A DNA stretch of 64,000 bases, taken from the IMG/VR virus record IMGVR_UViG_3300045988_180675, positions 135,478 to 199,477 of that record. The stretch is one strand, 5' to 3'. The notes below the pieces were generated by a model. The model saw only the letters and a program-made list of their open reading frames with translations. It was not told the DNA's origin and ran no database searches. Source of the stretch: a virus. Below are positions 14,332-57,285 of this stretch, one piece after another; positions within the stretch are counted from its first letter, which is position 1; each line of letters begins with the position of its first letter. Made by a program: the position numbers and the translations under genes.

Positions 14332-14334
14332 AGA

Positions 14335-15909: not shown

Positions 15910-15926
15910 ATTTCTTTGAAAATAAA

Positions 15927-15953: not shown

Positions 15954-15964
15954 AATTTTTAGAA

Positions 15965-19651: not shown

Positions 19652-19679
19652 TACATTTTGTGTTCTTTATAGAAAATAT

Positions 19680-19868
19680 TTACCATTTGTAATCTAATAT
19701 TTTCTTTGCGGTTGAAAGCGTCATATTTTCTAGCTTATACTTACCATTCCGATATCTGCTGATCATTGACTTATTGATTCCTGTACTTTTTGAAAGCTCG
19801 TGACCACTGATTCGACTGTTGTACAGAATGTTTTTGATCTTTTCTTCGATCTTTTCGATCTCTTTCAT
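19680..19868 (-). CDS. XRE-family helix-turn-helix transcriptional regulator (62 aa)
   Basis: HTH pattern ISGHELSKSTGINKSMISRYRNG and SD GGAAAGGG. Confidence 0.8.
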   Translation of the reverse strand: MKEIEKIEEKIKNILYNSRISGHELSKSTGINKSMISRYRNGKYKLENMTLSTAKKILDYKW

Positions 19869-19893
19869 ATTTCCCTTTCCTTTCTATACCCAT

Positions 19894-19922
19894 AGTATAG
19901 CATATTAGTTGCTATATTACAA
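19894..19922 (-). promoter_or_regulatory. promoter TTGTAA-N17-TATACT (TGc extended -10) overlapped by inverted repeat TATAGCA-N7-TGCTATA
   Basis: -10 at 19894..19899 and -35 at 19917..19922. Inverted-repeat arms at 19896..19902 and 19910..19916. The half-site equals the core of Box-1. Confidence 0.6.
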
Positions 19923-19948
19923 CCATTATTTAAAAAGAAAACATGCTT

Positions 19949-20659: not shown

Positions 20660-20726
20660 CGTTTTTCCTTTCTGGACCAATGGTTGAGCGTAGCCAGAAG
20701 ACTACGCTCCCCTTTCATTGATCACT

Positions 20727-26700: not shown

Positions 26701-28850
26701 AGTGTTCCTTTTTCATATCTTACGCCATCTGACGAAGGATTCTCTCCTCTTTCTTTATCTGTTGTCAAATATATTCCTTCATCAGTAAACTGATATGTTA
26801 CTGGACGTTGTCCATACGCAGAAGGGTCTTTTATATCCTTTGATTCATCTCTTGTCCATGGATATGGATAACCTACAATGTCGGAATAATATCTCATATT
26901 TTTATATTCTGTCATTGTTATTTCGGCATTGTCATAGCCATTAAAAGAATCAAGATCATATCTCATTTTCATTCCTTCCTTTTTATGAACATTAAAATGA
27001 CCATAAGGAAGCGAAAACGTCGGCTTGCTCCACTCCCATTTTATAGAGCTTTCTTTACTTGTTGCTGCGTCAATTCCATCAACAGGAGTTACAACAGCAT
27101 TAACTTTTAAAGTGTTTTGTAAATAAGTTTTGTTTTCAAACTCTGTATTTGGGATACGTACAACTACAGTATCAAACCGTTTATTAGACGGATTTGTTTG
27201 ATCGGTTACTTCATTTGAATTTTGGAATTTACCACCAAAAACATATCCGACAATTTCATAATTAGAGGAAGTTGCTTCTAATTTAAAATTGTATGGTTGA
27301 GTAGCATAAATGGTTGATTCAACTACATAGCTTAAATAAGTATAGTTGTCTACGTTAGCTGGTTTGTCTCCTTCGTATATCCATTTTTTATTTTTGGTTG
27401 GATATTTAACAGATGAAGATGCAATATTTGCTGTCGTATTAATTTTAACTGTTAGTGGATCGGCATTACGTACTTCGCTGCCTAATTCCATTTTGGCTGT
27501 AAATGACTTACTTTCAGCCATATCACGATATCTAAAAGAACTTTCTGCTGTGTGATAACCAACTTCTACATATCCTTCTGTACCTGCTGCTAACTTTCTG
27601 AAGTTATAGATAACAATGTTGTCACCATCTTCATAGTACGCAAAGTTTACATCCTTGTCGATCTGTTCGCCTGTACCAGCCATCATTGCATCTACTTCTC
27701 TTTGGTGTGGAATGGACATTTCATATTTGTCTGATGCCTGTCCATTGCGGTTTAACAAAATGCTCTTAGGAACTGTAAACATTACGGCGTTTTCACCTAC
27801 TTCATCTACACCAGAAATAGAGAAATTCACACGGAACACAAACATGTGTCCAGCTGCATATCCTCCAGTGTTAATTGTAGGTACTGTCCAAACGTTCGTT
27901 CCCTTATCTACACCGCCAACTAGCTTTGTATTAAAGTCGCCAATGTGCACATCTCTAACAGTAGTGTTACGCTCTACAGAACGAAGAGAAGCATCTTCTG
28001 CATTTTCTTCATTTGTTTTTACTGTAGGAGTAAAATTTACCTTATAAGTTATTCCATTGATCGTAACCAAGGCAAACATTTCGCTAGAGAAATCTTCTAC
28101 CTTTTCGATCATTTGATCTTTCGCTACGATATAACTTGAATTGCTTACTTCAAGATTTTGGATCTGTCCTACTAGTCCAGTCTGTGTCAGTAATTCGTCG
28201 TAAGAAATTGAACCAGCACTTAAATCTAGTGTCTTTGGTTGATAACTATAACGAAGCATATATACTTCATCCATCTTTTCGATAGATGTTTCTACCTTAT
28301 TTTCGTCATCAGTAGATTTCTTGATATCCAAAGGCTTAAATTCAAACTTGGCTAATTCAGTTTCTTTACCTTCTTTCTTATCTTCCTCTACTTTTTCAGT
28401 ATCCTTTTTCATTTCTACTAATCGATCAGCAGAAATCGAATATAAAGATACCTTAATATTTTTATCACCCAGTTTTTCATTCTTTAATGAAAGTTCAACT
28501 TTCTTTGTTGGGTTAAGTTTGTTTCCATCCTCATCTTCAAAAGAAACGTTAAAATACTGCTTTTTAGCAGTTTCGTAACCTTTTTCTTCTGTTAGATATA
28601 CATCTGATAGATCCTGATATTCTTTCGCAACCTCTGTAACGTGAAGTTTTGCTCCCTCTGGAAGCGAATCCTTCTCGGTCGTTGCTACGATATCATAATC
28701 ATCGTATGTCGTGGATAGTTCGAGCTTTTCAATCTTCTTTTCGCCTGTTCCTTCTTTTGCAAATGCCGCTACTGTATTTGGCATCATCATCAAAACAGAC
28801 AATGTAATAATTAAAAAGCTCTTGATTCGGTTTGTTATGCTTTTTTGCAT
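20727..28850 (-). CDS. giant LPXTG-anchored adhesin (2707 aa) with SpaA/Cna-B-type domains and DUF285-like repeats
   Basis: Signal peptide and several [EG]-rich ...F.L.G...T.D..G...F..[LV]E.G.Y.L.E..A... modules. A Cna-B-like block (KIIVKKVWEDADKNNENRP) and BspA/DUF285-like repeats (FDFSKVENATEMF..., NVENVVDFEDMF...). C-terminal LPSTG plus TM plus KKKEK. Confidence 0.85.
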   Translation of the reverse strand: MQKSITNRIKSFLIITLSVLMMMPNTVAAFAKEGTGEKKIEKLELSTTYDDYDIVATTEKDSLPEGAKLHVTEVAKEYQDLSDVYLTEEKGYETAKKQYFNVSFEDEDGNKLNPTKKVELSLKNEKLGDKNIKVSLYSISADRLVEMKKDTEKVEEDKKEGKETELAKFEFKPLDIKKSTDDENKVETSIEKMDEVYMLRYSYQPKTLDLSAGSISYDELLTQTGLVGQIQNLEVSNSSYIVAKDQMIEKVEDFSSEMFALVTINGITYKVNFTPTVKTNEENAEDASLRSVERNTTVRDVHIGDFNTKLVGGVDKGTNVWTVPTINTGGYAAGHMFVFRVNFSISGVDEVGENAVMFTVPKSILLNRNGQASDKYEMSIPHQREVDAMMAGTGEQIDKDVNFAYYEDGDNIVIYNFRKLAAGTEGYVEVGYHTAESSFRYRDMAESKSFTAKMELGSEVRNADPLTVKINTTANIASSSVKYPTKNKKWIYEGDKPANVDNYTYLSYVVESTIYATQPYNFKLEATSSNYEIVGYVFGGKFQNSNEVTDQTNPSNKRFDTVVVRIPNTEFENKTYLQNTLKVNAVVTPVDGIDAATSKESSIKWEWSKPTFSLPYGHFNVHKKEGMKMRYDLDSFNGYDNAEITMTEYKNMRYYSDIVGYPYPWTRDESKDIKDPSAYGQRPVTYQFTDEGIYLTTDKERGENPSSDGVRYEKGTLLTSDDVYIESVNYRYITRTAHYNAEEATFEYDKEKKYDESDIITLQVKHGQDEEFKTVGTYNFSTSQANFDSNFVSNFTNETIEFSRKDIIAYRITFSNKHYFSAIYAYPFLTLKNSEKVMNFVKGKERIGLANNVNGQFFNYKNEKILETNSNAVDYARVTQRSSEVEKHVVSSSNNAKQRIFDITWRISADEQIVSGQSGKIEYVVQNGGTFYDLLPLGSVLDKSSIIINKREGGMVSPADYTVTTIDNFNDTGRTMFRLDIKDPSEKYTVFFDTTYSWNNLKDFGTNIYNPVAYKTGNKSIAGGTADNGGRFDKNGKSPEHQIKENMAGLDSGEPDDWTSGVSKFIYAEEIYDVNNLTAATSGLTKKVKAEKDKKYSYETMTNIGKEYSYELRMANSGSSKAKDIIFYDSLENYVTEDGKQSDWHGTLNSIGLKQLEARGIKPVVYISTVENLSIDEHRDLTDSSIWQKVTDLSNISNAKAIAIDASKKADGTDFVLDETESLTAYLYMQAPNGANDIGRIPMAYNNIYMNATILGSNNKAETHLVHQDYTQIGLKISGNLMIKKVSENDTALTIEGIEYKLSGISNYGTVYDETVKTGSSGSAIFSDVELGTYTLQEYKATKDWLLDATTRVVTIDKSNNVIVDGVNYTNKELVLSDKPRIHTDIKFKKSELGNSFAKVSGAIFKLYGTSDYGTDIVKFATSNSDGEVKFDDVEKGRYAIKEIALENQRYVPNKELTVNILVDEFGKYSISSDNSEYYKNETVFNEHRYNGFKLRKIDADNNSIWLEGAEFLLKGVSELGTSTNITATSDENGVLTFENIEKGTYTLKEITAPTNVTADGKKGGNRNYIKDQKEYIVHISKLGEITIDGLEKENNTGFFIVKNERSEDGKIIVKKVWEDADKNNENRPIPQLTMTATDPNVNNIVYTVDFGNIPGIPESERKVIITFSKEEIERNSDSNNSLTTYIVKKVGEQIKAFAKRNETIISSAFPERETTLNSFENGEVIFREIIFDQSHLFTGTLNESDLYTRTFVFKDNKFKVAYLEPHFLNKIVQAENLTHSSVNGKKFTLFVDRSITKEAIMEINKQTDYLIVSSEDSPYKIYAHVNIRNGQIILSSEANTLFLPKDSSELFKYDSNSNENIFQLSRIALTQFDFSKVENATEMFANQQANISLPTSAIGSKSSGNLKIAKGMFLNFQSVNGDIDKIIDSLNVENVVDFEDMFKGSSFAKPTQPNSPTATAKDFQYFAFSMDLVKLVKDKQKLDAIKMNLGNTIKQGNRTLTNLNFYNTSLREFAHLSEEEMASVINKLLGDLKTTSKVVIGFAPEKAAPNEIRASVAKINGVIKKLGFTYGIDVSGYALSKTSRNNIKMDDSKSSYDRNGVTSVDWNELGWRPVPEPAEPEVKQMLDGTITYRSQADKWVKGDDNVWTYTFNVFDDTLEYKLFEEKMDGYTSEAMLPKYAIVNGTQSKGATITNKSTVGTGSFHLSKVVNGELVPGASYTFFLNFSNPNGFFNKPRVLSGVSIFGGHAMVQLKGGQDLVIEGLPEGTVVGVHEQTGPYQTTYSAKNVTIESGKQSDIVCTNTFTPPEPGEVSNVTLVKKVSGIADENTEYPFRVEFSNLTPNTRYLTTNNGVYFDSDLSGHALLDLRLRKDESIMFKKLPVGATYQVTELAGAYTSKYELSDDRGINKFNSENGLNEEENKDLSTAVETVDANENVSITFTNTIEHKQSLVVTKVEPEVTTEKYPFSIQFSNMKPNSFFSSDIGLVRADENGEATKDFTLGNGESVKFTDIPVGVEYKVIEQANKKLAKYALTADKGNFANATKENDEAMLDLVTELETIDDGEDATVIFTNITPPSAKIQLTKFGENNEKLGGATYALYKGTFFIKNIDINSNGKSDEIDGIGVGNYYLIETKAPEGYALDPNKHEFEIKKNQLNTTVQIELHDDKLKVLPSTGGRGMITFVIIAMVLLGGAGYLVISAKKKEKN

Positions 28851-28873
28851 ATTGGAATCCCCTTTCTACTAGT

Positions 28874-28886
28874 TATATTATGCTAT
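28874..28886 (-). promoter_or_regulatory. Box-1, exact copy, extended to an inverted repeat TATGCTA-ttt-TAGCATA
   Basis: Exact 13-mer, 23 nt upstream of the ATG at 28850. The palindrome spans about 28880..28896. Confidence 0.6.
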
Positions 28887-28923
28887 TTTAGCATACAAAA
28901 TAAACTATAATTTTTGTTTTTTA

Positions 28924-28961
28924 CAGAAAATAAAGAAGAGAAAAGTAACGCTTCCTCTTCT
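28924..28961 (-). terminator. probable terminator after the coupling-protein operon
   Basis: Stem agaagag/ctcttct (28934..28940 / 28955..28961) plus a T-rich tract on the minus strand. Confidence 0.5.
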
Positions 28962-28985
28962 TATCTTCTGATTTGTTGTCTTTTG

Positions 28986-31442
28986 CTACATCTTGACATC
29001 ATCGGCAACAGATTCTTTCACCTGGATTGCGGTGAGGTGATTTGCGTATGAGCCTACGCTTTCATCTCTTAGACTATCTAATGTTTTATCCAATGTGGAA
29101 TCTGCGTATCTCATTATTTCTTGGTTCTGTTCTAGTTTTTCTGATGCCTTAACAAGATCAATTGCAAGCTTATCCTTATTTTCTTCAATGTTATTGGCAA
29201 AACCTACAACGGTATTTCCATTGGCATCTTTGTTTTCGGATATTTCTTTCGCATTTTGCTTCTTAGCTTCTTCTCGATCTTTTCTCTTTGCTTCTTCATC
29301 TGAAGTCTCTTCTTGAACTTCACCATGTCGATCTTCCTTGGTTAATTCTTCATCCTTTTTAACACCGTTGGCATTAAAGTAATTGATCTTAGAATGATCA
29401 AAGTAAAATCCAGGCAAGCTTTCTACAAGTTTTCTATTTGGATGATCTAATGTCGTATACTTCTTGTCTCTAACAGGATCCAAAGACTTCATAATGATAA
29501 TACATTCATCTTCGCCGATTCTTCTTACTTCAGCAGGAGAAATCAGCTCTACGCCAGTGTTGTTAATTGAAACGCTACCCGCAGCACCTTTTGAGAATGA
29601 TTGGTTCATGATCTTACGTGTTTCTTTACCGATTGCGGCGGAAACGTACTTCGCAGTATCTTCATCCCAACCACCACCGATGTACATGAATGTGTCGCAG
29701 TTACCAGATAGCTCGCCCCATGAATCCTTATACATCTTCTTTAACTGGGCAAGTGACTGCAAGATGATCCATACAGAAATTTCATATTTACGAATCGTAG
29801 CAAGTTTCTCTTCGAACTTCGGAATCTTACCGATATTGGCAAACTCATCGGCAATTAATGATACGTGAATAGGTACACGTTGACCTCTATTGGATTGCTT
29901 GTTGGCTGGTATTACCTTACCAAATTCTTTGATGCCATCAAGCCATTCTTTAGCCTTTTCTTTTTGTCCACGCCATGTAATTAGCTTGTCATCTTTTGTT
30001 CGGATCTCATACCAGTTATATTGCTTGTTATATTTAATATATCCAGTCTTGATTCCTTCCAATATTTCCTTGGCTTCTTGCTGAGCCGCTGCTGACTCAC
30101 GTTCAGATTTAGCTCTAACTGTTTTAACGACCTGATTACTTGCGTCCATGATCAGATGACCATATTCCGCATTTCCTTCGGAATAATCGTATAAAAGCGT
30201 AAACAACTGAGAATACATTGTTGATGCTAAGAAGTTAAATGGTCCACCACCTGTAGGCAAGCAGATAAATATCGCAGTCTTTTCATCACCGATCTTATCT
30301 AATTCGATATCATCATCATCTGTCAGCTCTACTACGTCCTGAAGGTCGAAAGCCTTTAGTCGTGTAACGACAGAAATCAACACGGATTTCAAAGTCTTAC
30401 CAGCAGCCAATTTAAAGTTTTTGTACTGCTTTACAGCAAAGTTTTCTGGATCATATTGAGCAACTTCTTCAAAAATTGCATCTAATGGTGACTTGGAAGA
30501 ACTATCATTTTCATCTACATCAGCTGCACGAATTAATCTCATTACGTTTGAGAAATTTTGCTGGCTCTTGATTGTAAAGTGGTATAAGTAAGCAATTAGT
30601 GCTAATAGCAATGTCGTTTCTGCATTTTCCCAGAAGGCATCGCCACCCTTTTTATCAGCTGGCGTTGTATTAGCAATAATTGTATCAACAAGAATCGTAA
30701 TATCCTTATCTGAACGAATATATGTAAACGGGTTATAATGTGCAGATCGATCCATGTTTGTAAGATCAAACAATTTAACTTTATAACCTAACGCTTCCAA
30801 AAATCTTCCGTATTCTTTATTTAGACCACCAGAAGGGTCGGTTACAAGATAGGAACAGTTGGCTTGCATAATATTAGGACCAACGATGTTAAATGATTTA
30901 CCAGCACCAGATCCTCCGATTGCAAGAAGGTTTAAGTTTCTTCTTGTTCTCCATGCACTTAGCGAAAGTCTGATTTCTTGTGAAAAGATAACGTTGTTTG
31001 GACCACTATCATCTACTACCCCAAAAGGCTCTGTAAACCTCTTTTTATATTCGGAATAATCTTCCATCCATTTAGCAGAACCTTGGGCAATATCAGAATC
31101 GTAGTGGTTTTTAATTCTATCCCTACTGATCAATACAAAGGCATACATCCCCGCTGCAATAAATAGTAATAGAGAAATAACGAATGTTCCACTTGGAATT
31201 GGAAATATCGAAAAAGGCTTGAAGATCATGTGAGGTATTCCTTGAATAACATCATCAAAAATATCATTTCGAGGATTGTTATGAGCAACGACTCTAACAT
31301 GAATAATGTATAGTGCAAATAAAGCATACACAATCAATGTGTAGATGATCAATCTCTTGTATCTAGCACGTTGTTTCTCTGAAAGATTCAGAAGCTTATA
31401 AAACTTCTTTTGGAGTTCGGCTAATTTTTCTTTATTCATCAT
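28986..31442 (-). CDS. VirD4/TraG-type type IV coupling protein
   Basis: 818 aa with N-terminal TM helices, Walker A GGSGAGKS and the characteristic ...LIADEFANIGKIP... Walker B region. The ATGA start/stop overlaps the upstream gene. Confidence 0.9.
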   Translation of the reverse strand: MMNKEKLAELQKKFYKLLNLSEKQRARYKRLIIYTLIVYALFALYIIHVRVVAHNNPRNDIFDDVIQGIPHMIFKPFSIFPIPSGTFVISLLLFIAAGMYAFVLISRDRIKNHYDSDIAQGSAKWMEDYSEYKKRFTEPFGVVDDSGPNNVIFSQEIRLSLSAWRTRRNLNLLAIGGSGAGKSFNIVGPNIMQANCSYLVTDPSGGLNKEYGRFLEALGYKVKLFDLTNMDRSAHYNPFTYIRSDKDITILVDTIIANTTPADKKGGDAFWENAETTLLLALIAYLYHFTIKSQQNFSNVMRLIRAADVDENDSSSKSPLDAIFEEVAQYDPENFAVKQYKNFKLAAGKTLKSVLISVVTRLKAFDLQDVVELTDDDDIELDKIGDEKTAIFICLPTGGGPFNFLASTMYSQLFTLLYDYSEGNAEYGHLIMDASNQVVKTVRAKSERESAAAQQEAKEILEGIKTGYIKYNKQYNWYEIRTKDDKLITWRGQKEKAKEWLDGIKEFGKVIPANKQSNRGQRVPIHVSLIADEFANIGKIPKFEEKLATIRKYEISVWIILQSLAQLKKMYKDSWGELSGNCDTFMYIGGGWDEDTAKYVSAAIGKETRKIMNQSFSKGAAGSVSINNTGVELISPAEVRRIGEDECIIIMKSLDPVRDKKYTTLDHPNRKLVESLPGFYFDHSKINYFNANGVKKDEELTKEDRHGEVQEETSDEEAKRKDREEAKKQNAKEISENKDANGNTVVGFANNIEENKDKLAIDLVKASEKLEQNQEIMRYADSTLDKTLDSLRDESVGSYANHLTAIQVKESVADDVKM

Positions 31443-33451: not shown

Positions 33452-34325
33452 CCTTATTCACCTGTCTCTCTTTTAATTTTTTTATCAATTCCTTTTCATT
33501 GGCAACACCTTCTCTTGATAAAACCATTTGTCTTACAAGTGGAAGGTTGATCGTATCACTATCGCTGCACCATTCCTTTTTATATCCATCGTAGTATGTC
33601 TTGGTTTGTGGGTTTGTAGCCACATATACACGTTCTACACGATGGCTAGGAGCATACAATCTTGGATTGTAGATCTTATAAAAATCGTATTTCTTCTCTT
33701 CTTTTTGCCCCATTTCTTTTTCTCTGATTCTCTTCTTATATACACCAAGAGATAATTGCAAAACACGAGTCGTAGCAATTACGTCATCCATTGATTGGTG
33801 GAACGTTAATCCCTTATTGAGTCCGTATTTTTCTGCTACCATACTCAGCTTATATTTTTCACAATCTAATAATTCTTTTGCCATTGGGAAAGCATCGATA
33901 TGAAGATCATAAGTAAAATCTTCACCAAACACACGTTGGTACATGGAGTTCATAAAGCCTTCGTCAAATCCTGTTGAATTATATCCAGAAATCAATGCCT
34001 TTTCGCCAATAAAATTTCTGATCGTTACAGCTGCTACATCTTCTGTTGGTTTATCCTTGACCATCTCATTTGTAATGCCATTGATATCAGAAACTTCTTT
34101 TGGAATTATCATTTCTGGATTGATAAACTGATTGATCCGATCGACTTCTCGAAAGGATACTCCATCATACGTTACCTTTACAGCACTAAAAGACAGAATT
34201 CTATCTGTCAGCTTTTTCAAACCAGTTGTTTCAAGGTCGAATACGATTAACTCTCGTCCCTTGTTAAGTTCTTCTAATAGAACCTTAGCTTCTGGTTCTC
34301 TATTTTCTAAAGATAATCTGCTCAT
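33438..34325 (-). CDS. DEDDh (DnaQ/epsilon-like) 3-prime-5-prime exonuclease with extra C-terminal domain
   Basis: Exo I VFDLETTGL, Exo II GYNSTGFDEGFM, Exo III HQSMDDVIAT. The start is trimmed to MSRLSLEN, whose ATG (34325..34323) overlaps the sortase TGA (ATGA coupling). Confidence 0.8.
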   Translation of the reverse strand: MSRLSLENREPEAKVLLEELNKGRELIVFDLETTGLKKLTDRILSFSAVKVTYDGVSFREVDRINQFINPEMIIPKEVSDINGITNEMVKDKPTEDVAAVTIRNFIGEKALISGYNSTGFDEGFMNSMYQRVFGEDFTYDLHIDAFPMAKELLDCEKYKLSMVAEKYGLNKGLTFHQSMDDVIATTRVLQLSLGVYKKRIREKEMGQKEEKKYDFYKIYNPRLYAPSHRVERVYVATNPQTKTYYDGYKKEWCSDSDTINLPLVRQMVLSREGVANEKELIKKLKERQVNKDAVR

Positions 34326-35140
34326 TTTTCCCGTCCTTTCCATATCAATGCAACGGTTATAATACAAGCGAATGTCATAACAATAACAATGCCAGATTCA
34401 ATCAATGCTGGCTTTATCACATCACGCATTGGATCCGTATAGTTTTCTTTTGGTGCAGCCGTTAGATCTACTCTATGTCCAGTAACTAATAACCGATGCG
34501 TATTAATACCGTATGGAGTACAAGTAACAAGTGTAGCGAGATCCTTCCCGTCCTGGATCTTCAAGGCGTTTACTTCAGATGGCAAGACCGTTTGTATATT
34601 GTCTACCTCATAAGCCAACTTTTTGTTGCCAACGGTAATATAGAAGATATCACCTGTTACTAGCTTATCTATATCCGTAAACAATTTTGCTGTTGCAAGT
34701 GCCCTATGTCCACTTAGCACTGTATGTGTATCTACTCCTCCGATCGGGAAACTTGTTCTTTCGATATGCCCAATACAATTTTCTAACACATCATCTTCTG
34801 TACCGTGCTTGATTGGTAGTTTTACATTGATTTTCGGAATATCTACATAACCTATTATGCTATTTTTCAGGTCTAAGATTTCAAAATAATTACTGTTCTT
34901 CAAAAGAAATTGGTTGCCGTTAGTTTTAGAATATTCATAAAGTTCTTCGTTATATTTTTCCGCTTCTTTTATTTTTTCTTCTATATCGTTTTCGTGTATA
35001 ACTTCTTCAGAATAAGAAACAATATCTTTTGCAGCATGGTATTTATTGAGTGTATCCGTTATAGAAGGAATTAAAAGACAAATGATTGCTATATAGGTTA
35101 ATAAAACAGCACATGTGAATCTAATTCTTGTTTGTCTCAT
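34322..35140 (-). CDS. class C (pilin-polymerising) sortase
   Basis: N-terminal TM, HRAL..., active-site block LATLVTCTPYGINTHRLLVTGHR, and a C-terminal hydrophobic lid/TM. Confidence 0.85.
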   Translation of the reverse strand: MRQTRIRFTCAVLLTYIAIICLLIPSITDTLNKYHAAKDIVSYSEEVIHENDIEEKIKEAEKYNEELYEYSKTNGNQFLLKNSNYFEILDLKNSIIGYVDIPKINVKLPIKHGTEDDVLENCIGHIERTSFPIGGVDTHTVLSGHRALATAKLFTDIDKLVTGDIFYITVGNKKLAYEVDNIQTVLPSEVNALKIQDGKDLATLVTCTPYGINTHRLLVTGHRVDLTAAPKENYTDPMRDVIKPALIESGIVIVMTFACIITVALIWKGREK

Positions 35141-35143: not shown

Positions 35144-35935
35144 TTATTTCACCAATTTATAGACCAACTGGATTCTCTCTGTATTTCCTTCTTCGACACT
35201 TTTACATGTTGATAATACAGTTATCTTATCATTCGTCTTAGGATCATCACCTAAAGTATAATCAGCTTTGTTTTTTAGTTCTGTTAATAGGTTTTGATAC
35301 TCTAGTGATTCTGACATATATGGTGTGTTGTATATATTATCGTATGCATCCCCGTTTATCATCGCCCACAACGTCCAGTGTTCTGTTCTGTCTGGATAAT
35401 ACATGTACAGATCTGGATTTGCTGTACCGTATGCCTGGTCTTGATATCTAGTTAGTGAAGAGAATGCAATTGCTTCTGTATTGGACCAAATTGTATCTGT
35501 ATTGCTGAACATTTTGTGACCGAAAATAATCGTGTGCATATCTTCTGGTACATTTGCAATAAATAATGATCCACCAATGTAATAATCCTTGTTAAAATCA
35601 TGGGTTAAATAAAAATATTGATCAGGAACTGGTTCCTTCATAACTGGATAATCAATAGGCGTGTTTGGTACTGTAAGCCATGCGTATGTATCTTCATTTT
35701 TACTTAATAATGCACCAAAATCGATCTTGCGATCCATATAATCATTTCTTACCACATCTTTTCCGTTTGTTTCTTCATTTGTTGCAATCTTTTGTACATC
35801 ATTTGAGACAGCTGTAAAATGTTTCTCCGTTTCAAATTCCTTAATTGCCTTATATCCAAAAAATATACTAACACCTATCAGTGCTACTCCAACCGTTTTT
35901 CTAACAGCATTTTTAATACTCTTTTTTAATTTCAT
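35144..35935 (-). CDS. class B-like sortase
   Basis: N-terminal TM, HTIIFGHKM, ITVLSTCK... and a downstream Arg (TERIQLVYK). Size and motif order are as in SrtB. Confidence 0.7.
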   Translation of the reverse strand: MKLKKSIKNAVRKTVGVALIGVSIFFGYKAIKEFETEKHFTAVSNDVQKIATNEETNGKDVVRNDYMDRKIDFGALLSKNEDTYAWLTVPNTPIDYPVMKEPVPDQYFYLTHDFNKDYYIGGSLFIANVPEDMHTIIFGHKMFSNTDTIWSNTEAIAFSSLTRYQDQAYGTANPDLYMYYPDRTEHWTLWAMINGDAYDNIYNTPYMSESLEYQNLLTELKNKADYTLGDDPKTNDKITVLSTCKSVEEGNTERIQLVYKLVK

Positions 35936-36898: not shown

Positions 36899-39800
36899 TT
36901 AGTGCTTCTTCTTAATAAGTAAGTATGCACCGCAAGTCATTGCTGCAAGAGCAACGAATGCTAGAGCGATTACGCCACCAGTTGATACGCCTGTACCAAT
37001 TTCTGGAGCTAACTCATTTTCAACAGTAATCTGAATTGGATTTTCTTTTGCGAAATTCTTATCATCTACTGGGTTTACAACATACTTGTTATTATTTAAC
37101 TTGTAACCATTTGGAGCCTTAGTTTCTTGCACATAATATCCACCAAGATCATCCTTGTATTCAACGTTGAATGAAACAAGTCCGTCCGCACCAGTTGTGG
37201 CAATGCACTGCTTACCGTCAACATCAACAGCTACTGATCCATCAGCATTGAATAGTGTGAATTCTGCTCCTGTAAGTGTCTTATTCTTGTCAGCAGCATC
37301 AACTTTCTTGATTGCAACAAAGTAATTCTTGCGAGCATCTGTCATTGATACAAGCTGCTTTTCAGCAGATGATCCAGTTGCAGTAAACTCGATTTCCTTA
37401 GCCTTTTCAAAGCCCTTTGGAGCTTCTACTTCGCTTAGGATATATGTCTTTCCACCGACTAGCTTTTCTGATACATTGTGCATTTCCTTATCGGAAACAA
37501 ACTCGTCAACAACTTCTCCTGTTTCCTTGTTTGTAATCTTCAATTTTGCACCACTGATTAGTGTTCCGTGGTTGTCTACCTTAGCAACTTGAATGTCGTT
37601 ATCTAAGTCTACCATTGTGATTGTAACAGGTTCATCTGTACCAACCTTGGCAACCTGGAATACCATTGATGTGCTTAATGCTTTGCCATTTACGGATTCC
37701 TTTTCAACTAATTGGTATGTATGCTCAGCCTTTAGAACCTTCTTTAATTCGAATGGTTCCTTTGTTGTAATTCCGTTATTTGGTAGCTCAACAGTTACAG
37801 GGTTTTCCTTATCCGTGATGTCTGTTAATTCTAACTTAACACCTTCGACATATTCTCCCCTTTCATCAACCTTTGCAATCTTATAATTGATAGCACCATC
37901 AATCATTGTGATTGTAACAGGCTTATCAGGATGGAACATGTCAACAGTTACTTCACGTTCTGTTGTGTAGTAGTATCCATCGATTGGTTCTGTTTCACGG
38001 ATGATGTATGTCTTACCAGCAAACAACTTCTTGCCGATCTGATGTTCTTCATCAGGCTTTGTCTGCCAGCTTTGAATTACTTCACCAGATTCCTTATCGA
38101 CAACTTCCAACTTAACATTTGCTAATGGATGACCATCAGAATCTACCTTCTTAACCTTGATATCGATATCTTCGTCAACCATTGTGATTGTAACCTTTTG
38201 ATCAGGCTTAAACTTATCAACTGTAAATGTGATGTCAGCTGACTTGTAGTGACCAGCAACTACCTCTGTTTCACGCAAGATGTATGTGTTTCCAGCTTTA
38301 ACAATGTTTCCGATCTGGTGTTCTTCGTCTGGCTTTGTCTGCCAAGAAGTAACAACTTCTCCCGTTTTGCTATCAATTACCTCTAACTTGACATCAGCTA
38401 ATGGATGACCGTCTGAGTCCACCTTCTTAACAACTAGATCAATTTTATCTTCTGGAATTGTTAGATTTACTGGAAGATTTGTAGGAGTATTCTCGTCAAT
38501 AGTGATTTCTACAGGTTTAGCATTGTAGTATCCTACTGGAGCTTCCTTTTCGATAATCTTGTATGTCTTTCCTCTACGGAAGATATTTACTTCTTGAGGC
38601 TCTTTTGAAGATGTGATTTCGCCAACCTTCTCATCTGTTGTAGCGTCATACACCTCGAATGTTACGCCTTCAATCTTTTCGCCTGTTGCAGCATCAATCT
38701 TAGCAAATTCATAACGAACATGTTCATTCTTGAAACTTACTTGGATTGTGTCGTTTGCTGGCTTTGTTTCTGGAACTAAGAAGTCCATTGCTTGTGCAAT
38801 ATAGAATTCCTTGTCGGCATTCTTTTCGATAATTCGGTACATGTGACCAGCCTTTAACAAATGACCAACCTGTTCACCATGTTCGGCAACGCTTGTCCAC
38901 TTATGTACTGGTGTTGTTGCATTTGGATCTTCTGTAATATCATATAACTCTAGTTCGGCATTAGCTACAGGGTTTCCCTTTTCATCTACCTTTACGATTT
39001 CACGCTTAATAGATTCATCTGTAACGTTAATTCCTTCCAATACCTTATGGTCTTCAGAAATTGTAAACGCTACTGGATTAGGGTTTACGAAATAACCTGT
39101 AGGAGCCTTCTTTTCTACTAGCTCATAGTTTCCGTATGGTAAGAAGTTCTTAGGAGTTGAATAACTTCCGTCTTCCTTTGTTGTGATTCTGTATGACAAT
39201 TCTTCTCCAGCGTTTGCTGTACCAAGAACATCACCGTCATCATTTCGAGCTACTACGTCAAAATCATTTTTGTTTACAACTGCAAACTCTGTAACACCCT
39301 TGATAACATTTCCTGTCTCGTTGTCAAGCTTTGTTCCTTCGAATTCGCCACGTAATACACCTTCTTTAACTGTAAAGTGATTTCCAGCGTTCATTGATGC
39401 GACAGTATTATCATCAACAATATTCATTAAAGCAACACCGTTTCGTTGTTCTACAGTATCACCAACAGCAGATAATACTTTGTTTTCCAATTTGTATCCG
39501 TTTGGAGCCTTTGTTTCCTCAACAGTTACAGTACCGAGAGGGAACGTTGGGTTACTATTATCTAAATAAAAATCATCACCAGAAACCTTGTATTTCTCAC
39601 TTAATCCCGTTACAAACTCTCCTCTTCCATTCTTCAATGTTTTAATAACCCATTGTCTTGTTGGAGTTGATGGAAGCGTGTCAAATGTATATTGACCAGC
39701 ATAGAATTTAACTGTGAATTCAGCACCTTCTAGGCTTGCTGGATTGTTAATTACATCTCCATCTTCAGAAACTTTATTTAATTCAATTCTGAGCGGGTCA

Positions 39801-40954
39801 TTTAATGGCATGTCTTTAGAATATACATCCCAGCCATCTGATGCAGTAGACAATGAATAAACTGAATAGATCTTAGAGTCTAAAGCGAAGCCCTTTGGAG
39901 CCTTTAACTCCTTGACATAAAGATTGTCACCTGGATTAACTACGACATGGTTTAATACGCCACGACCAGAAGCGTCAGTTGTAATTTCTCCAACCTTATC
40001 TGTTGTTGCTGTAGAATCACGATATACACCGTATACAGCACCTGACATGTCCTGTGCATAGCACTGGTTTCCAGTTGTTAACTCTGCGTTTCCGTTTGTC
40101 TTGTTTACACGAACGTACATTTCCATTGTGCGTGGAGCTGTTTTGATTGTCCAAACACCTGCACAACGCTGATAAGGTACTGTTCCGCCCATATCTAGGT
40201 TCCAACCAGTTGCCTCTTGTCCTGTGTATGGGTTTAAATAACGTGGGACATTAATATTCATTGTTACTGTTCCATCTGGTGCTACAGAAGTGACTGTAGC
40301 TGTAAATGGGTAATATGTCTTATTCCCTGGTTCATACGCTGTTTTGTACGTAATGCCAACATAACCATGTTCTTGACAGTCAACAAACTGAACGCCATTG
40401 ATCTGATCCGCTACTGCAGCAAGAATACCTGTAACATCGTCAATATAGAAACGACTTACACCGATTGGATTCGTATTACTTGTACCAAGAGTACCAGAGA
40501 ATGTATCTCCTACAGCCAATTCATTTACGCTTCCTGTAGAACGTCTGTTTCTTGAGCGTGCTGATAATACAGACCCTTTGATAACAGAGATATAAGCTGT
40601 CTTTTCAGATGTCTTATATTCCATGTCACCCTTGTAACTTTCTTGCGTTCCATCGTTGTTGAATACGGCAATCTGTGTTGCATCAGAAATCTTTAGAGTC
40701 GCACCCTGCTCGATTTCTTTTCGATCGCCATCTTCACTTGTGTAGGTAGTGCCATTTACTGTTACCGTTGCACCCTTTAAATCAAGAATAAACTTGCCTT
40801 CTTGTGCCTTTTCTCCCGTTGCGTTGTAGCCTGTATTTACTTCAGCGTGTGCTGGAGTTGCAGGTACTAACGGAGATAGTGGTAACATCATGACTGCTAA
40901 AGTCAATGCCACTGCCTTTGAAAATGTCTTTTTTACTTTTTTGAAAAAATTCAT
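36899..40954 (-). CDS. multi-domain surface adhesin (1351 aa) with tandem SpaA/Cna-B-like domains
   Basis: Signal peptide (…PATPAHAE) and about ten modules of the form VKKVD..G.PL..[AV].LE[LV]........W.T......I..L.AG.TY.[IL].E..AP.GY. C-terminal ...EIGTGVSTGG plus TM plus KKKH. Confidence 0.8.
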   Translation of the reverse strand: MNFFKKVKKTFSKAVALTLAVMMLPLSPLVPATPAHAEVNTGYNATGEKAQEGKFILDLKGATVTVNGTTYTSEDGDRKEIEQGATLKISDATQIAVFNNDGTQESYKGDMEYKTSEKTAYISVIKGSVLSARSRNRRSTGSVNELAVGDTFSGTLGTSNTNPIGVSRFYIDDVTGILAAVADQINGVQFVDCQEHGYVGITYKTAYEPGNKTYYPFTATVTSVAPDGTVTMNINVPRYLNPYTGQEATGWNLDMGGTVPYQRCAGVWTIKTAPRTMEMYVRVNKTNGNAELTTGNQCYAQDMSGAVYGVYRDSTATTDKVGEITTDASGRGVLNHVVVNPGDNLYVKELKAPKGFALDSKIYSVYSLSTASDGWDVYSKDMPLNDPLRIELNKVSEDGDVINNPASLEGAEFTVKFYAGQYTFDTLPSTPTRQWVIKTLKNGRGEFVTGLSEKYKVSGDDFYLDNSNPTFPLGTVTVEETKAPNGYKLENKVLSAVGDTVEQRNGVALMNIVDDNTVASMNAGNHFTVKEGVLRGEFEGTKLDNETGNVIKGVTEFAVVNKNDFDVVARNDDGDVLGTANAGEELSYRITTKEDGSYSTPKNFLPYGNYELVEKKAPTGYFVNPNPVAFTISEDHKVLEGINVTDESIKREIVKVDEKGNPVANAELELYDITEDPNATTPVHKWTSVAEHGEQVGHLLKAGHMYRIIEKNADKEFYIAQAMDFLVPETKPANDTIQVSFKNEHVRYEFAKIDAATGEKIEGVTFEVYDATTDEKVGEITSSKEPQEVNIFRRGKTYKIIEKEAPVGYYNAKPVEITIDENTPTNLPVNLTIPEDKIDLVVKKVDSDGHPLADVKLEVIDSKTGEVVTSWQTKPDEEHQIGNIVKAGNTYILRETEVVAGHYKSADITFTVDKFKPDQKVTITMVDEDIDIKVKKVDSDGHPLANVKLEVVDKESGEVIQSWQTKPDEEHQIGKKLFAGKTYIIRETEPIDGYYYTTEREVTVDMFHPDKPVTITMIDGAINYKIAKVDERGEYVEGVKLELTDITDKENPVTVELPNNGITTKEPFELKKVLKAEHTYQLVEKESVNGKALSTSMVFQVAKVGTDEPVTITMVDLDNDIQVAKVDNHGTLISGAKLKITNKETGEVVDEFVSDKEMHNVSEKLVGGKTYILSEVEAPKGFEKAKEIEFTATGSSAEKQLVSMTDARKNYFVAIKKVDAADKNKTLTGAEFTLFNADGSVAVDVDGKQCIATTGADGLVSFNVEYKDDLGGYYVQETKAPNGYKLNNNKYVVNPVDDKNFAKENPIQITVENELAPEIGTGVSTGGVIALAFVALAAMTCGAYLLIKKKH
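37890..38445 (-). repeat. two near-identical tandem 279-bp coding repeats (93-aa domains)
   Basis: IDLVVKKVDSDGHPLADVKLEV...WQTKPDEEHQIG... versus IDIKVKKVDSDGHPLANVKLEV...WQTKPDEEHQIG.... DNA similarity is visible at 38120..38150 and 38390..38420. Confidence 0.7.
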
Positions 40955-41099: not shown

Positions 41100-41112
41100 G
41101 ATATTATGCTAT
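41100..41112 (-). promoter_or_regulatory. Box-1, one mismatch (gatattatgctat)
   Basis: Lies 145 nt upstream of the adhesin ATG at 40954, implying an unusually long leader. Confidence 0.5.
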
Positions 41113-41147
41113 TTTTCTGAAAAAATAAATATATTTTTAGAAAAAAA

Positions 41148-41342
41148 TTAGCGAAATCTTGTAAGCAACGAAAACCCTGTTGCCCCGATCATGTCTGAAG
41201 CGACAACGAGTAGTGCTACAATGCTAATAATTGTCACAACCGTAAACAACTGTTTCACCACTTCCGAATGCTTCATCCACTTGATTCGCTTGAATTCACT
41301 TCTTACACCCTGTAAAAAAGATGCTTTTTTTATCTTTACCAT
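41148..41342 (-). CDS. SecE-like preprotein translocase subunit paralogue (64 aa)
   Basis: By eye FLQGVRSEFKRIKWMKHSEVVKQLFTVVTIISIVALLVVASDMIG aligns with Bacillus SecE [45 protein letters not shown]. It has a single C-terminal TM, SD AAGGGAG and its own promoter and terminator context. Confidence 0.6.
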   Translation of the reverse strand: MVKIKKASFLQGVRSEFKRIKWMKHSEVVKQLFTVVTIISIVALLVVASDMIGATGFSLLTRFR

Positions 41343-41371
41343 AATTTTTACTCCCTTCTATATACACTATC

Positions 41372-41400
41372 ATTATATCATATACTGTTATATAAGACAA
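41372..41400 (-). promoter_or_regulatory. sigma-A-type promoter TTGTCT-N17-TATAAT (TGa extended -10) with ATACTGTTAT box in the spacer
   Basis: -10 at 41372..41377, -35 at 41395..41400, and the box ATATACTGTTATAT at 41380..41393. Confidence 0.65.
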
Positions 41401-41424
41401 GAATAAAGGAGCGTAAAGCTCCTT
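41399..41424 (-). terminator. terminator after topB
   Basis: Stem aaggagc/gctcctt (41406..41412 / 41418..41424) plus a T-rich tract on the minus strand. Confidence 0.65.
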
Positions 41425-43852
41425 ATTTTTTAAACGCTAGTTTTGTTGTCTTTTGAGTGTAATCAAAGGCTACTTTGGCATCTGACATTGGCGTTCCATC
41501 CTTTTTCTTCAAGTTCTTCAAGAATTCTGTTTCGCCGTTTTCGAATAACTGATCCAGTTCATTTTCTGCCATTCTTCTACCACCGACATACATCCACATG
41601 CTGAAGCCACATGAACAAGAAAACTTTCCGCCTTCCTGTTTTAATTCTTGACTACAAATCGGACAACTGCGTTTTTTGTATACAGCCTTTACAAATTCTA
41701 CTCCATAATTAGCGTCACATCTAAGCTTTTGTGTCCATACAGAGCCATCATTTTTCATTTTCTTTTCTATGACTTTTCCATTTAGAAGATCTAGCATATC
41801 CTGCTCACTGATCTTAGCAGAACAAATTTCTGATATACTTCCTGCCTTGCAGCCACTTTTCCAGTTGGAACAGAAGTATCCTTTTTCACCTACAAGAATA
41901 TCTCCACCACAACTTGGACATTTTGTTAATATTTTTAATTTGCTCTTTCTTTGGAATCCGCCTTCTGAAAGTGGCTTCATTGGACTGTTTTTAAATTCTA
42001 CAATCAGTTTGGCTACAGTATCTTTCATTACTTGTTCAAAGTGTTGTAATGACATTTCACCTTGACGCACTGCCTCAAGTTGTCTTGTCCATTCTGCCGT
42101 CATATCAACATTACAAATATCGAAGTCCTTTAGGTTTTCAATAATCTCCTTGCCTACAGGGGTTGGTTTGATAATGTCCCGTCCTGTTAGCTCCATATAT
42201 TTGTTTCTAGTGATCAGCTCTTCAATAATAGGTGCCCTTGTTGCTGGCGTACCAATTGTAAGATCCTTATCTCTCAATGTTTTATCATTTAAGAACTTAT
42301 TTGGATTTTCGCATGCTTCAATCAGTTTTGCAGTTGAGAATCGCTTCGGCATCGTTGATGTTTTCTCATTGAAACTATAATTACTTACTTGTAACATCTG
42401 CCCTTTATTTAGTTCTGGAATTTCAATATCGGTTGTTGTTTTTCCGAAAACATCCAACCAACCACGTTGCAACAACTTTTTGCCAGTGGATCTAAAAGTA
42501 TTTTCGCTTCCATCTTGTGCAAGAACGCTAGTGATAACAGTCGTTACTTTTTGTTCCATGTTTGGCATGAATATCGAGACAAATTGACGACAGATAGTTT
42601 CATAGATTTCTCTTTCTGGTTTACTTAATGAATTCATGTCTGGCTTATGTGTGGTTGGAACAAGTCCTGAATGTCCTTCCTTCTCCAACTTTTCATCATT
42701 ACACCATTTCTTTGTATGCCGAACACGACCAATCGCTGATGAGTCAATAGACGCTACAAACGGAGCAAGGGAAGGAATGCATGCAACAGAGTTTAATAAT
42801 CCTTCCAAATTTTCGTTACTTCCAATGTATTCACATGATGTTCTTGGATACGATAGCAACTTTTTCTCGTATAGCATCTGTAAATAACGCTGCGTGTCAC
42901 CTGCCGAGTATCCTAGTGAGCCACATGCTACCTGGGCAGATGCAAGATTAAACAATTTCGGTGGTAATGTAGATTTCTTTTCGGTCTTATATTCTATTAC
43001 CTTTGCACTATTTGAAAGAGTTGATACCTTATCTAATGCTTCTTGTTTTGTATCAAACCAAACAACGCCATCTTCTCTATTTTCATCGTCTTCTTTTTGA
43101 CCACTTGAAGCTACAAATAAGGTTCCATCAAAACCCTGTAAATAGTTTGCACTAATTCCGTATACTGTCTTAGGAGTGAAATTTTCAATTTCTTTTTCTC
43201 TATCAACGACAATCTTCAGCATTACAGTTTTAACTCTACCAACACTTACTAACCCATTCATCGTTAAACTTGCCGCTTCAGAAAGGTTCATCCCAAATAG
43301 CCAATCGGCATGCTGTCTTCCATAGGCGGCAGATAAAAGATTTACGAGTCTTGGAGAATTGTTGTCATCCTCTAAATTTTTAAGTGCATGGAAAATGTTT
43401 TCATCTGCAATATTATTGGTCCAGAATCTAAGGATCGGTAAAGTATTTTTTAATTCAGCCAATACGATTCTAATTAGAAGCTCTCCTTCTTGATCTGGGT
43501 CTCCTGCGTTGACGATGAAATCGTAATTTCCAGACTCTATTTCCTGCTTGATTGCCTGAATACGTTCCTTTGCAGTTAAGAAGTTGCCAACCTTCTGTTC
43601 TTCGATCGGTTTGTACTTCCAACCACCAAAGTTTTCTGGATAAATCGGTAATGTTTCCCAATTCCACATCTTTAAAGATTCATCTAATTCATTTGGTTTT
43701 AAAAGCGTAAATAGATGTCCTCGTTGGGCAACGAATCCGTTTAATGTATATGGTAATTCATTTTTATGTGTATAGTAGCTTTCTTTTATCACGCCTAATA
43801 GCGATGGCTTTTCAGCAATAACCAAGCCTCTTTTTCTGTAAAGATCGATCAT
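41423..43852 (-). CDS. topB: DNA topoisomerase III (type IA) with C-terminal zinc ribbons
   Basis: Toprim N-terminus (LVIAEKPS..., GDPDQEGE), active-site region LLSYPRTSCEY, and several C-terminal CxxC...CxxC ribbons. Confidence 0.9.
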   Translation of the reverse strand: MIDLYRKRGLVIAEKPSLLGVIKESYYTHKNELPYTLNGFVAQRGHLFTLLKPNELDESLKMWNWETLPIYPENFGGWKYKPIEEQKVGNFLTAKERIQAIKQEIESGNYDFIVNAGDPDQEGELLIRIVLAELKNTLPILRFWTNNIADENIFHALKNLEDDNNSPRLVNLLSAAYGRQHADWLFGMNLSEAASLTMNGLVSVGRVKTVMLKIVVDREKEIENFTPKTVYGISANYLQGFDGTLFVASSGQKEDDENREDGVVWFDTKQEALDKVSTLSNSAKVIEYKTEKKSTLPPKLFNLASAQVACGSLGYSAGDTQRYLQMLYEKKLLSYPRTSCEYIGSNENLEGLLNSVACIPSLAPFVASIDSSAIGRVRHTKKWCNDEKLEKEGHSGLVPTTHKPDMNSLSKPEREIYETICRQFVSIFMPNMEQKVTTVITSVLAQDGSENTFRSTGKKLLQRGWLDVFGKTTTDIEIPELNKGQMLQVSNYSFNEKTSTMPKRFSTAKLIEACENPNKFLNDKTLRDKDLTIGTPATRAPIIEELITRNKYMELTGRDIIKPTPVGKEIIENLKDFDICNVDMTAEWTRQLEAVRQGEMSLQHFEQVMKDTVAKLIVEFKNSPMKPLSEGGFQRKSKLKILTKCPSCGGDILVGEKGYFCSNWKSGCKAGSISEICSAKISEQDMLDLLNGKVIEKKMKNDGSVWTQKLRCDANYGVEFVKAVYKKRSCPICSQELKQEGGKFSCSCGFSMWMYVGGRRMAENELDQLFENGETEFLKNLKKKDGTPMSDAKVAFDYTQKTTKLAFKK

Positions 43853-43987: not shown

Positions 43988-44016
43988 ATCTTATCATAAC
44001 AGTATATTTTAGTCAA
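43988..44016 (-). promoter_or_regulatory. sigma-A-type promoter TTGACT-N17-TAAGAT (TGa extended -10) with ATACTGTTAT box in the spacer
   Basis: -10 at 43988..43993 and -35 at 44011..44016. The box lies within 43994..44007. Divergent from the plus-strand promoter at 44031. Confidence 0.65.
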
Positions 44017-44030: not shown

Positions 44031-44059
44031 TTGACATTATTTTCTTTAAAGAATATAAT
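44031..44059 (+). promoter_or_regulatory. consensus sigma-A promoter TTGACA-N17-TATAAT
   Basis: TTGACA at 44031..44036, an exact 17-nt spacer, and TATAAT at 44054..44059. It lies 25 nt before the ATG at 44085, with SD AAGAGG. Confidence 0.8.
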
Positions 44060-44084: not shown

Positions 44085-44327
44085 ATGAATCAAGATGTAT
44101 TAAAGATTGCTTTTGCTATTATGATTACTATTCTTAGTGGCTATATCTGTATTAACGTTTTAACCGCTGAGATCAAGAATTCAAAATCAATTACGATGGC
44201 TGGAACAGAAAATTCTTATTGGAATAAAAATAAGTCACGATCAACAGAAGCAAAGAAAGATAGAATTATGAAGATTGCAATTCTGTTATTCTTAGTCGCT
44301 ACAATTTCTGCAAATATTCTCTTTTAG
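44085..44327 (+). CDS. small membrane protein (80 aa), the only plus-strand gene
   Basis: Two hydrophobic helices flank a basic loop. It has a perfect promoter, an SD and a bidirectional terminator. Confidence 0.65.
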   Translation: MNQDVLKIAFAIMITILSGYICINVLTAEIKNSKSITMAGTENSYWNKNKSRSTEAKKDRIMKIAILLFLVATISANILF

Positions 44328-45011: not shown

Positions 45012-45287
45012 CTATGCGATCTTGGAGACTTTGTAGGTCGCAAAACCTACGAAGTATCTCTCAACATCTTCTAGTGATAGTTCCTTACCACGCATTTCTG
45101 CTGGAAGGTTCATATCGACAGAAGTGATCGTATTGGCGAGTGCTGCCAAGTGTAAAGGTAAGACTCCGTAGATGTCTTTTCCCTTTACAGTCTCAGCATC
45201 GGCATGGCTCACCACCATGTCGAATTCGAGTCCCTGCTTCTGCAAGAACTCTACGAGAGCCTCGTGACGTGTAATCAAAATCTTCAT
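45012..45287 (-). CDS. Csx16-family (VVA1548-like) small protein, orphan (no CRISPR locus nearby)
   Basis: 91 aa. The pattern MKILITRHEA...GVLPLHLAA...LPAEMRGKELSLEDV matches my recollection of the Csx16/TIGR02620 family (ITRH.GA...G.LP..LAA...P.E.RG.EL). Not verified by search. Confidence 0.55.
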   Translation of the reverse strand: MKILITRHEALVEFLQKQGLEFDMVVSHADAETVKGKDIYGVLPLHLAALANTITSVDMNLPAEMRGKELSLEDVERYFVGFATYKVSKIA

Positions 45288-57281: not shown

Positions 57282-57285
57282 AGAA

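Follow-up and report, generated by a model that had tools for sequence, protein, structure and literature searches.

The genes for the Sec translocase are essential chromosomal genes, and the extra copies that are known (SecA2/SecY2) belong to specialized chromosomal systems. In every SecYEG complex, SecE clamps SecY. In the accessory Sec (aSec) system of streptococci and staphylococci, SecA2 and SecY2 (TIGR03714, TIGR02920) are accompanied by Asp4 and Asp5. Here, we analyze a secE gene on a stretch of 64,000 nucleotides from the IMG/VR virus record IMGVR_UViG_3300045988_180675 (positions 135,478 to 199,477 of that record; hereafter the window, with positions counted from its first nucleotide). 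The gene product is probably one subunit of a Sec translocase that is complete, of canonical type, and encoded on a conjugative megaplasmid-like element of ~200 kb.

Sec genes on a plasmid have been described for Hodor, conjugative megaplasmids of the human gut of 211–389 kb (average ~357 kb) with a guanine plus cytosine (GC) content of 45–47% (Yuan et al., bioRxiv Feb 2026, PMC12934698). Hodor carries co-transcribed genes for SecY, SecG, and SecE, with a trigger factor gene and sortase B close by, as well as sortases and giant surface proteins, and its authors proposed that the Sec proteins form the export pore for these surface proteins (PMC12934698). An element counts as a Hodor when its nucleotide identity to a curated member is 90% or more, or when it has a Rep_3, ParA, ParB, or ParM protein at least 50% identical (PMC12934698). 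Besides Hodor, no report of naturally plasmid-encoded SecA, SecY, or SecE was found in the literature searched. An earlier note on this DNA, made from the sequence alone, had proposed the secE gene as an undescribed plasmid function; that Hodor encodes SecY, SecG, and SecE speaks against that novelty.

The secE Gene and Its Product

The secE gene (41148–41342, minus strand) lies between topB (41423–43852) and the gene of a 1351-amino-acid adhesin (36899–40954). It encodes a protein of 64 amino acids, MVKIKKASFLQGVRSEFKRIKWMKHSEVVKQLFTVVTIISIVALLVVASDMIGATGFSLLTRFR, with an amphipathic N-terminal helix followed by a single C-terminal transmembrane segment (TM). The product matches the Pfam profile PF00584 with 36.5 bits (gathering cut-off 22.7; E = 4.6e-9), residues 8–60 corresponding to profile positions 2–54 of 55, and the equivalog model TIGR00964 (secE_bact) with 30.3 bits (cut-off 27.55). 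A scan of NCBIfam returned SecE models only, and the product is therefore not Asp4-like. It can be aligned to the SecE proteins of Aquifex (3DL8_C, E = 0.0015) and Thermotoga (3DIN_D). Among 46 aligned members of the family the hydrophobic stretch at residues 32–52 is conserved, Trp22 is invariant, and position 23 is a Met in at least 90% of the sequences.

We identified 108 homologs of secE at 73–95% identity, from metagenomic sources only. The same synteny surrounds these genes in every locus inspected, across independent assemblies and several studies. Pairwise ratios of nonsynonymous to synonymous substitution (dN/dS) are 0.09–0.21 at dS values of 0.46–0.98, indicating purifying selection. 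Judged by profile scores, conservation and substitution pattern, the 64-amino-acid open reading frame (ORF) is a genuine SecE-family gene, real and constrained. The earlier note had recognized it as SecE from the amphipathic N-terminus, the E..K[KR][VI].W motif and the single TM, had remarked on its position outside the nusG/rplK context and next to topB and the adhesin gene, and had asked for a profile search; the scores, the structural alignments and the Pfam annotation of the window bear out this part of its account.

With housekeeping SecE the product shares the curated-profile family and a short architecture of the Gram-positive/Thermotoga type, in which the E..K+I.W motif is followed by the single TM. 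The housekeeping gene lies with nusG and rplK, whereas the present gene has topB and the gene of an adhesin as neighbors, on a conjugative element; the Pfam listing of the window contains neither a NusG nor a ribosomal-protein domain, and secE adjoins neither nusG nor rplK/rplA. The product also has a Met in place of the hinge Pro, and its relatives at 73–95% identity are located on this same element in every locus inspected. The jumbo cyanophage MaAM05 (MW495066) likewise has an annotated secE on a large mobile or viral genome, but in a search of a phage collection the match was weak (30% identity over 43 residues, E = 0.02) and this phage has a different host.

Genes for SecG, SecY, SecA, and Processing Enzymes

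The element carries one copy each of secA, secY, secE, and secG, at four separate loci. The secG gene (44085–44327, plus strand) is found 2.7 kb from secE, divergent from topB, and encodes a divergent SecG homolog of 80 amino acids with two TMs and the conserved loop ITMAGTENSYWxKNKSRS. A search of 1.84 billion representatives with a family profile built from 37 members yielded 40 distant proteins, of which 39 belong to PF03840 (best E = 3e-24), and an hhalign comparison of the family with SecG gave a probability of 99.1% over 78 columns. The dN/dS values of secG are 0.10–0.27. Both secG and the promoter-like motif between secE and the adhesin gene, discussed below, go beyond what the earlier note had described.

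The secY gene (429 amino acids) is located outside the window, ~6.7 kb past its right end and ~29 kb upstream of secE, and shares contigs with genes of the window (L010, L011, and L012). It is directly preceded by a gene for a membrane protein of 276 amino acids, at a spacing of 11 nt. The SecY protein scores 320 bits against the canonical model TIGR00967 (cut-off 253.6), whereas it fails the SecY2 models TIGR02920 (135 bits, cut-off 249.6) and NF009082 (139 bits, cut-off 353), and it can be aligned end to end with solved SecY structures.

The secA gene lies on the far side of the circle formed by the element. It is intact on contigs of 204,259 and 204,189 bp, and is tied to the contig with SecY through a 6.1-kb overlap at 94% identity. 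The 829-amino-acid product contains all four SecA Pfam domains and is without the C-terminal zinc finger. Here too the canonical models are passed (NF009538, 1066 bits, cut-off 814; TIGR00963, 982 bits, cut-off 800), while the scores remain under all SecA2 cut-offs (TIGR03714, 787 against 930; TIGR04397, 871 against 1085; NF012136, 675 against 1100; TIGR04221, 589 against 725). Two independent assemblies break within secA near the conserved RGRSGRQGDPG motif, one as a scaffold gap of 10 N (L164, 11251–11260) and the other as an inferred contig end (IMGVR_UViG_3300045988_178166); k-mers in common with a host secA could be the cause of these breaks.

Two predicted signal peptidase I genes were detected on the element, SipS serving as a BLAST query. 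One (L016, 5159–5647; IMG/VR record 119692–120183) directly follows adhesin genes of 1374 and 1167 amino acids, the position that a SipA-like peptidase of a pilus locus would take; assignment as a SipA-type pilus chaperone was rejected, as the protein passes the TIGR02227 equivalog model. The other (L159, 12309–12818) lies beside a ParM-like partition gene. At least four genes with a sortase domain are present on the element, two of them in the window and at least two elsewhere. No YidC, SecDF, signal recognition particle, trigger factor, Asp, or Gtf domain was found in any domain listing, an absence that is soft as many ORFs have no Pfam match.

The Element and Its Probable Host

Metagenomic contigs of 194–207 kb repeatedly carry the same genes, with a GC content of about 36% (33–40%). 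Two contigs of the Joint Genome Institute, both of 199,422 bp, differ in their coordinate offset, which suggests a circular element. We tiled the element by walking along a 178,493-bp IMG/VR copy and then along loci found through members of the gene clusters; the overlapping loci cover it entirely and close on themselves into a circle. VirD4, a VirB4-like protein, PrgI and a ParM/Alp-like partition protein are encoded, together with DnaE, a primase-like protein and SSB. Neither a relaxase nor a replication initiator was identified on the element. There are no tRNA genes in its ~200 kb, a scan of the window with Rfam at gathering thresholds gave no match, rRNA included, and none of the Pfam listings of the element contains a ribosomal-protein, nusG, or rplK domain. 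On the basis of its gene content the element is classed as conjugative, and it is probably circular, in agreement with the mobile nature assumed in the earlier note.

Relatives were sought among plasmids and reference genomes. In PLSDB neither a megablast search with 10 kb around secE nor tblastn with SecE gave a match, and the best plasmid matches to the TopB of the element are <30% identical. A scan of the GTDB representative genomes with TopB peptides of the element likewise found no relative. The window contains an IS605-family tnpB gene without tnpA (5196–6335, minus strand), and relatives of this TnpB at 80–88% identity are found mostly in genomes of Lachnospiraceae and in some Erysipelotrichaceae such as Catenibacterium. 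As a family-level hint, these relatives suggest that the host is probably a member of the Lachnospiraceae, gut Bacillota. In variant L005 a copy with both TnpA and TnpB (14789–16362) sits at another site, between the adhesin gene and the next gene, so that the insertion sequence is or was active in the lineage of the element.

A 158-amino-acid protein of the element has relatives at 32–77% identity on dozens of IMG/VR contigs of 40–640 kb (L027–L071). Large elements classified as viruses may thus form a much wider family, whose members might carry sec genes as well. In the replication/recombination arc of the element, a PARP-domain protein of 511 amino acids (L169, 354–1889) is accompanied by a guanylate kinase-like protein, two RecD2-like helicases, a RecG-like helicase, and an SMC/SbcC-like ATPase.

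Surface Proteins and Conjugation Genes of the Window

The adhesin encoded next to secE (36899–40954, minus strand; 1351 amino acids) has a signal peptide and eight SpaA/prealbumin-fold repeats (Pfam SpaA, E = 8.4e-88), ends in a TM with a charged tail, and is likely to be a Sec substrate. Downstream of it, two sortase genes, both with the Pfam Sortase domain, form a surface-anchoring module: a class C sortase (34322–35140, minus strand; NF033745, 249 bits, cut-off 160) and a class B-like sortase (35144–35935, minus strand; TIGR03064 SrtB, 93 bits, under the cut-off). On the other side of secE, topB (41423–43852, minus strand) encodes a topB-like type IA DNA topoisomerase with a Topoisom_bac (E = 8.3e-88) and a Toprim domain.

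A block of conjugation and adhesin genes extends over 11476–31442 (minus strand), as annotated by Pfam. It contains, all on the minus strand, genes for a VirB4-like ATPase (11476–13887), a PrgI/VirB3-like protein (13906–14331), a pilin (19949–20680), an LPXTG adhesin of 2707 amino acids (20727–28850), and the VirD4 coupling protein (28986–31442). The window encodes pilins and several giant surface proteins, a match to the LPXTG anchor model being found for one of the latter, and there is an NlpC/P60-type hydrolase of 1528 amino acids. Roughly half of the coding capacity of the window, as judged by eye, is taken up by proteins with an N-terminal segment resembling a signal peptide, in line with the large exported fraction first noted for this DNA; on the whole element there are >10 signal-peptide proteins.

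Genes for a Ser/Thr protein kinase, a PP2C phosphatase, and an FHA-domain protein are clustered at 54787–59001 (minus strand), the FHA-domain protein having an N-terminus like a signal peptide and a FIVAR domain; this eukaryote-like signaling module is unusual on a plasmid. A 91-amino-acid protein (45012–45287, minus strand) matches Cas_VVA1548 (PF09652, E = 2.9e-23); its surroundings showed neither a CRISPR array nor another cas gene.

Promoters and the secE-Adhesin Junction

A promoter scan placed a sigma-70-like site upstream of secE (41372–41400, minus strand; TTGTCT-17-TATAAT, with a TG upstream of the -10 element), which is conserved in variants L001, L003, L005, L006, and L008. The ATACTGTTAT box is found in inverted orientation inside the spacer of this site (41382–41391), and the ribosome-binding site GAAGGGAG lies ~8 nt 5' of the ATG; the separate promoter and the box thus agree with the first reading of the sequence. 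Further 5', at the end of topB, the hairpin GGAGC-TTTAC-GCTCC (41406–41424, minus strand) is terminator-like on both strands and kept across variants. The promoter-like site of secG (44031–44059, plus strand) reads TTGACA-17-TATAAT, with 12 of 12 matches.

The ATACTGTTAT box forms part of a motif that recurs across the replicon (class 1), in which it directly precedes an extended -10 element (TGnTATAAT). All five exact copies in the window are intergenic (7567, 19631, 35977, 41382, and 43996), the last of these (43996–44005) lying in the divergent region shared by secG and topB. More than 20 further copies are present elsewhere on the element (L010, 934; L169, 13737; and >20 sites in L013, L022–L026, L171, and L172). 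The box precedes all four sec loci: secE, secA, the operon of the hypothetical gene and secY, and the topB/secG divergent region. It is also located 5' of many DNA-metabolism genes, and may serve as an operator or mark one temporal class of promoters.

Between the secE stop codon and the start of the adhesin gene, a motif of a different kind is present (class 2; AAATAGCATAATA, 41102–41114, minus strand), followed on its 3' side by a small hairpin that is preserved in the variants by compensatory changes. In the general form A[A/T]ATAGCATAATA the window contains 11 copies, against 0.56 expected by chance (243, 4909, 11373, 15899, 28876, 34853, 41102, 43876, 51139, 54135, and 59033, all minus strand). 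All of them are on the gene strand, and most are situated 23–50 nt 5' of the starts of adhesin, type IV secretion system (T4SS), and other genes. The motif resembles a second class of promoter, for which an element-encoded, sigma-like reader is possible (weak Sigma70_r2 match, L013, 18607–19710).

Some variants (L001, L002, and L003; 10366–10603) carry an insertion of 372 nt between secE and the adhesin gene, which scores 80 bits against the HEARO RNA RF02033 (gathering score 83; E = 2.6e-16). The RF02033 family comprises the omega RNAs that belong to IscB systems; neither an IscB nor an HNH ORF lies beside the insertion. In variant L005 a different insertion of ~105 nt occupies the same place. 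The terminator scan scored no terminator-like site between the two genes, as the earlier note had stated, but its suggestion of an operon does not fit well with a promoter-like motif, a hairpin, and a HEARO-like insertion at the junction. Most likely the adhesin gene has a promoter of its own, as its upstream sequence indicates, which leaves the idea of secE as an adhesin leader gene weak and a tight coupling of the two genes unlikely. The secE gene would accordingly be expressed from its own promoter and not as the leader gene of the adjoining adhesin.

A Putative Plasmid-Borne Sec Translocase

Taken at the level of gene content, one conjugative element encodes a full set of predicted canonical-type translocase subunits, processing enzymes, and a very large secretome. 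In the mechanism that we propose, plasmid SecE would clamp plasmid SecY and shield it from degradation, and SecE/SecY would form, with SecG and SecA, a second translocase working in parallel to that of the host or mixed with it. Such a translocase would add export capacity and free the export of the plasmid surface proteome from the host Sec machinery. The plasmid signal peptidases would then cleave the exported proteins and the sortases would anchor them to the wall, with adhesins and pili probably serving mating-pair formation and colonization.

Several observations weigh against this proposal. The function assigned rests on homology and gene content, and the sec genes are dispersed and do not form an operon. 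The SecG protein is below the curated cut-offs, with 21.5 bits against 29.2 for PF03840 (E = 2.6e-4) and 16.8 against 30.85 for TIGR00810 (E = 0.005), and a PDB profile search with the SecG family gave no match to a PDB SecG. The plasmid SecE family has Trp-Met where the SecE proteins of 3DL8 and 3DIN have the hinge Trp-Pro; a Trp-Pro hinge before the TM is typical of the SecE family, but does not formally define it. With the Met in SecE and the low scores of SecG, an altered function of both may be conceivable. The signal peptides of the exported proteins look ordinary, with no sign in their sequences of a need for a private translocase, and co-regulation of the sec genes is read solely from a box that also stands at >20 unrelated genes of the element. 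Finally, the complete gene map was put together from several variants, at 91–100% identity, and does not come from a single contig.

The main alternative, which we consider a good deal less probable than a plasmid-borne translocase but worth serious attention, is that the plasmid subunits mix with those of the host, for instance with plasmid SecE stabilizing host SecY, and that no separate translocase is formed. They could then raise the number of translocons when the giant secretome is induced, or adapt the plasmid to hosts whose Sec proteins match poorly. The canonical housekeeping type of all four proteins, none of which is specialized, and the ordinary signal peptides of the substrates would suit such hybrids, and dispersal is what is expected of genes retained independently as helpers. 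Yet all four subunits are carried, with purifying selection where it was measured (secE and secG), for which a self-sufficient set is the simplest explanation, and the marked divergence of SecE and SecG from typical homologs suggests co-adaptation to plasmid SecY.

Three other explanations are each poorly supported. According to the earlier note, a stand-alone accessory SecE, co-transcribed with the adjoining gene, would join the SecYEG of the host for export of the 1351-amino-acid adhesin, in the manner of SecA2/SecY2. The lack of a strong scored terminator between secE and the adhesin gene and the adjacency of the two genes in all variants examined favor this view; we nevertheless regard it as improbable. 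The element encodes SecY, SecG, and SecA, which provides SecE with cognate partners, and with two signal peptidases I added to these SecE is not a lone subunit. The adhesin gene is preceded by the AAATAGCATAATA motif, which is present at another ten sites of the window on the gene strand, mostly just 5' of gene starts, while the hairpin after secE is kept through compensatory changes and a 372-nt HEARO-like insertion is tolerated at the junction. The SecA2/SecY2 analogy fails at the level of family membership, since SecA and SecY do not pass the corresponding models and the secE product is not Asp4-like. Slightly less probable still is a role of the Sec homologs outside adhesin export, such as insertion of T4SS membrane components, interference with the host translocon, or exclusion of competing elements or phages. 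Consistent with such a role, secE and secG lie on either side of topB within the conjugation region, and the box in the sec promoters is common to DNA-metabolism genes and not to adhesin genes. No specific evidence was found for it, however, and two signal peptidases, several sortases, and >10 signal-peptide proteins point to export. Lastly, the window could be chromosomal, with secE the housekeeping copy of the host, or could derive from the reduced genome of a tiny cell, as SecA, SecY, SecE, SecG, signal peptidase, DnaE, primase, and SSB resemble a core cellular set. This we hold to be very improbable: a housekeeping chromosomal locus was rejected, as no tRNA gene was found in ~200 kb, no rRNA in the window, and no ribosomal-protein, nusG, or rplK domain in the Pfam listings, whereas the element encodes T4SS components and a ParM-like partition protein, recurs at ~200 kb, and closes on itself. 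The earlier interpretation is thus partly supported: secE would be one subunit of a complete Sec translocase borne by the plasmid.

Comparison With Hodor and the Accessory Sec System

The present element and Hodor are both large, conjugative, and extrachromosomal, and both belong to gut Bacillota. Virus-detection pipelines tend to class such elements as viral, and the present one is found in IMG/VR. Both encode VirB4 and VirD4 together with several sortases and with giant surface proteins that have signal peptides, and both have plasmid genes for SecY, SecG, and SecE, a hypothetical gene lying just 5' of secY. In contrast to the 211–389 kb and 45–47% GC of Hodor, the element described here measures ~200 kb with about 36% GC, and its sec genes are dispersed (secG 2.7 kb and secY ~29 kb from secE) where those of Hodor are co-transcribed. 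A trigger factor, a Rep_3 domain, or a protein of >7300 amino acids was found in neither the Pfam listings nor the ORFs of the element. Conversely, it encodes a full SecA and two signal peptidases I, neither of which appears in the main text on Hodor (PMC12934698). As judged from the published description, the two differ in size, GC content, and the arrangement of the sec genes. Our analysis extends the Hodor observation to a second, compositionally distinct family of elements, and adds SecA and signal peptidase to it.

With the aSec system the element has in common a second Sec set in a Gram-positive cell, tied to the export of large surface adhesins and including small SecE- and SecG-like subunits. 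The aSec genes form a chromosomal cluster, however, whereas the present genes are dispersed on a plasmid. No Asp1–3, GtfA/GtfB glycosyltransferases, or serine-rich-repeat substrate were found in the Pfam listings of the element, in which many ORFs have no Pfam match and some scans give family lists only. Membership of the aSec family was rejected, because SecA and SecY pass the housekeeping models and fall short of the SecA2 and SecY2 cut-offs.

Significance for Conjugative Elements of the Gut

The element might be the first mobile element shown with a complete, self-sufficient general secretion pathway, comprising SecA, SecY, SecE, SecG, two signal peptidases I, and several sortases; we put this forward tentatively, as a claim about which we remain in some doubt. 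The divergent, presumably functional variants of SecE and SecG offer a natural set for studies of subunit compatibility. If the proposed translocase is real, a conjugative plasmid could build and display its own proteome of giant adhesins and pili on the surface of any Bacillota cell that it enters, and its host range and mating would be independent of the export machinery of the recipient. This would provide an answer to the question of how megaplasmids express surface proteins of 1,000–2,700 amino acids in varied hosts, and would make the capacity for protein export itself something that is transferred horizontally in the gut microbiome.

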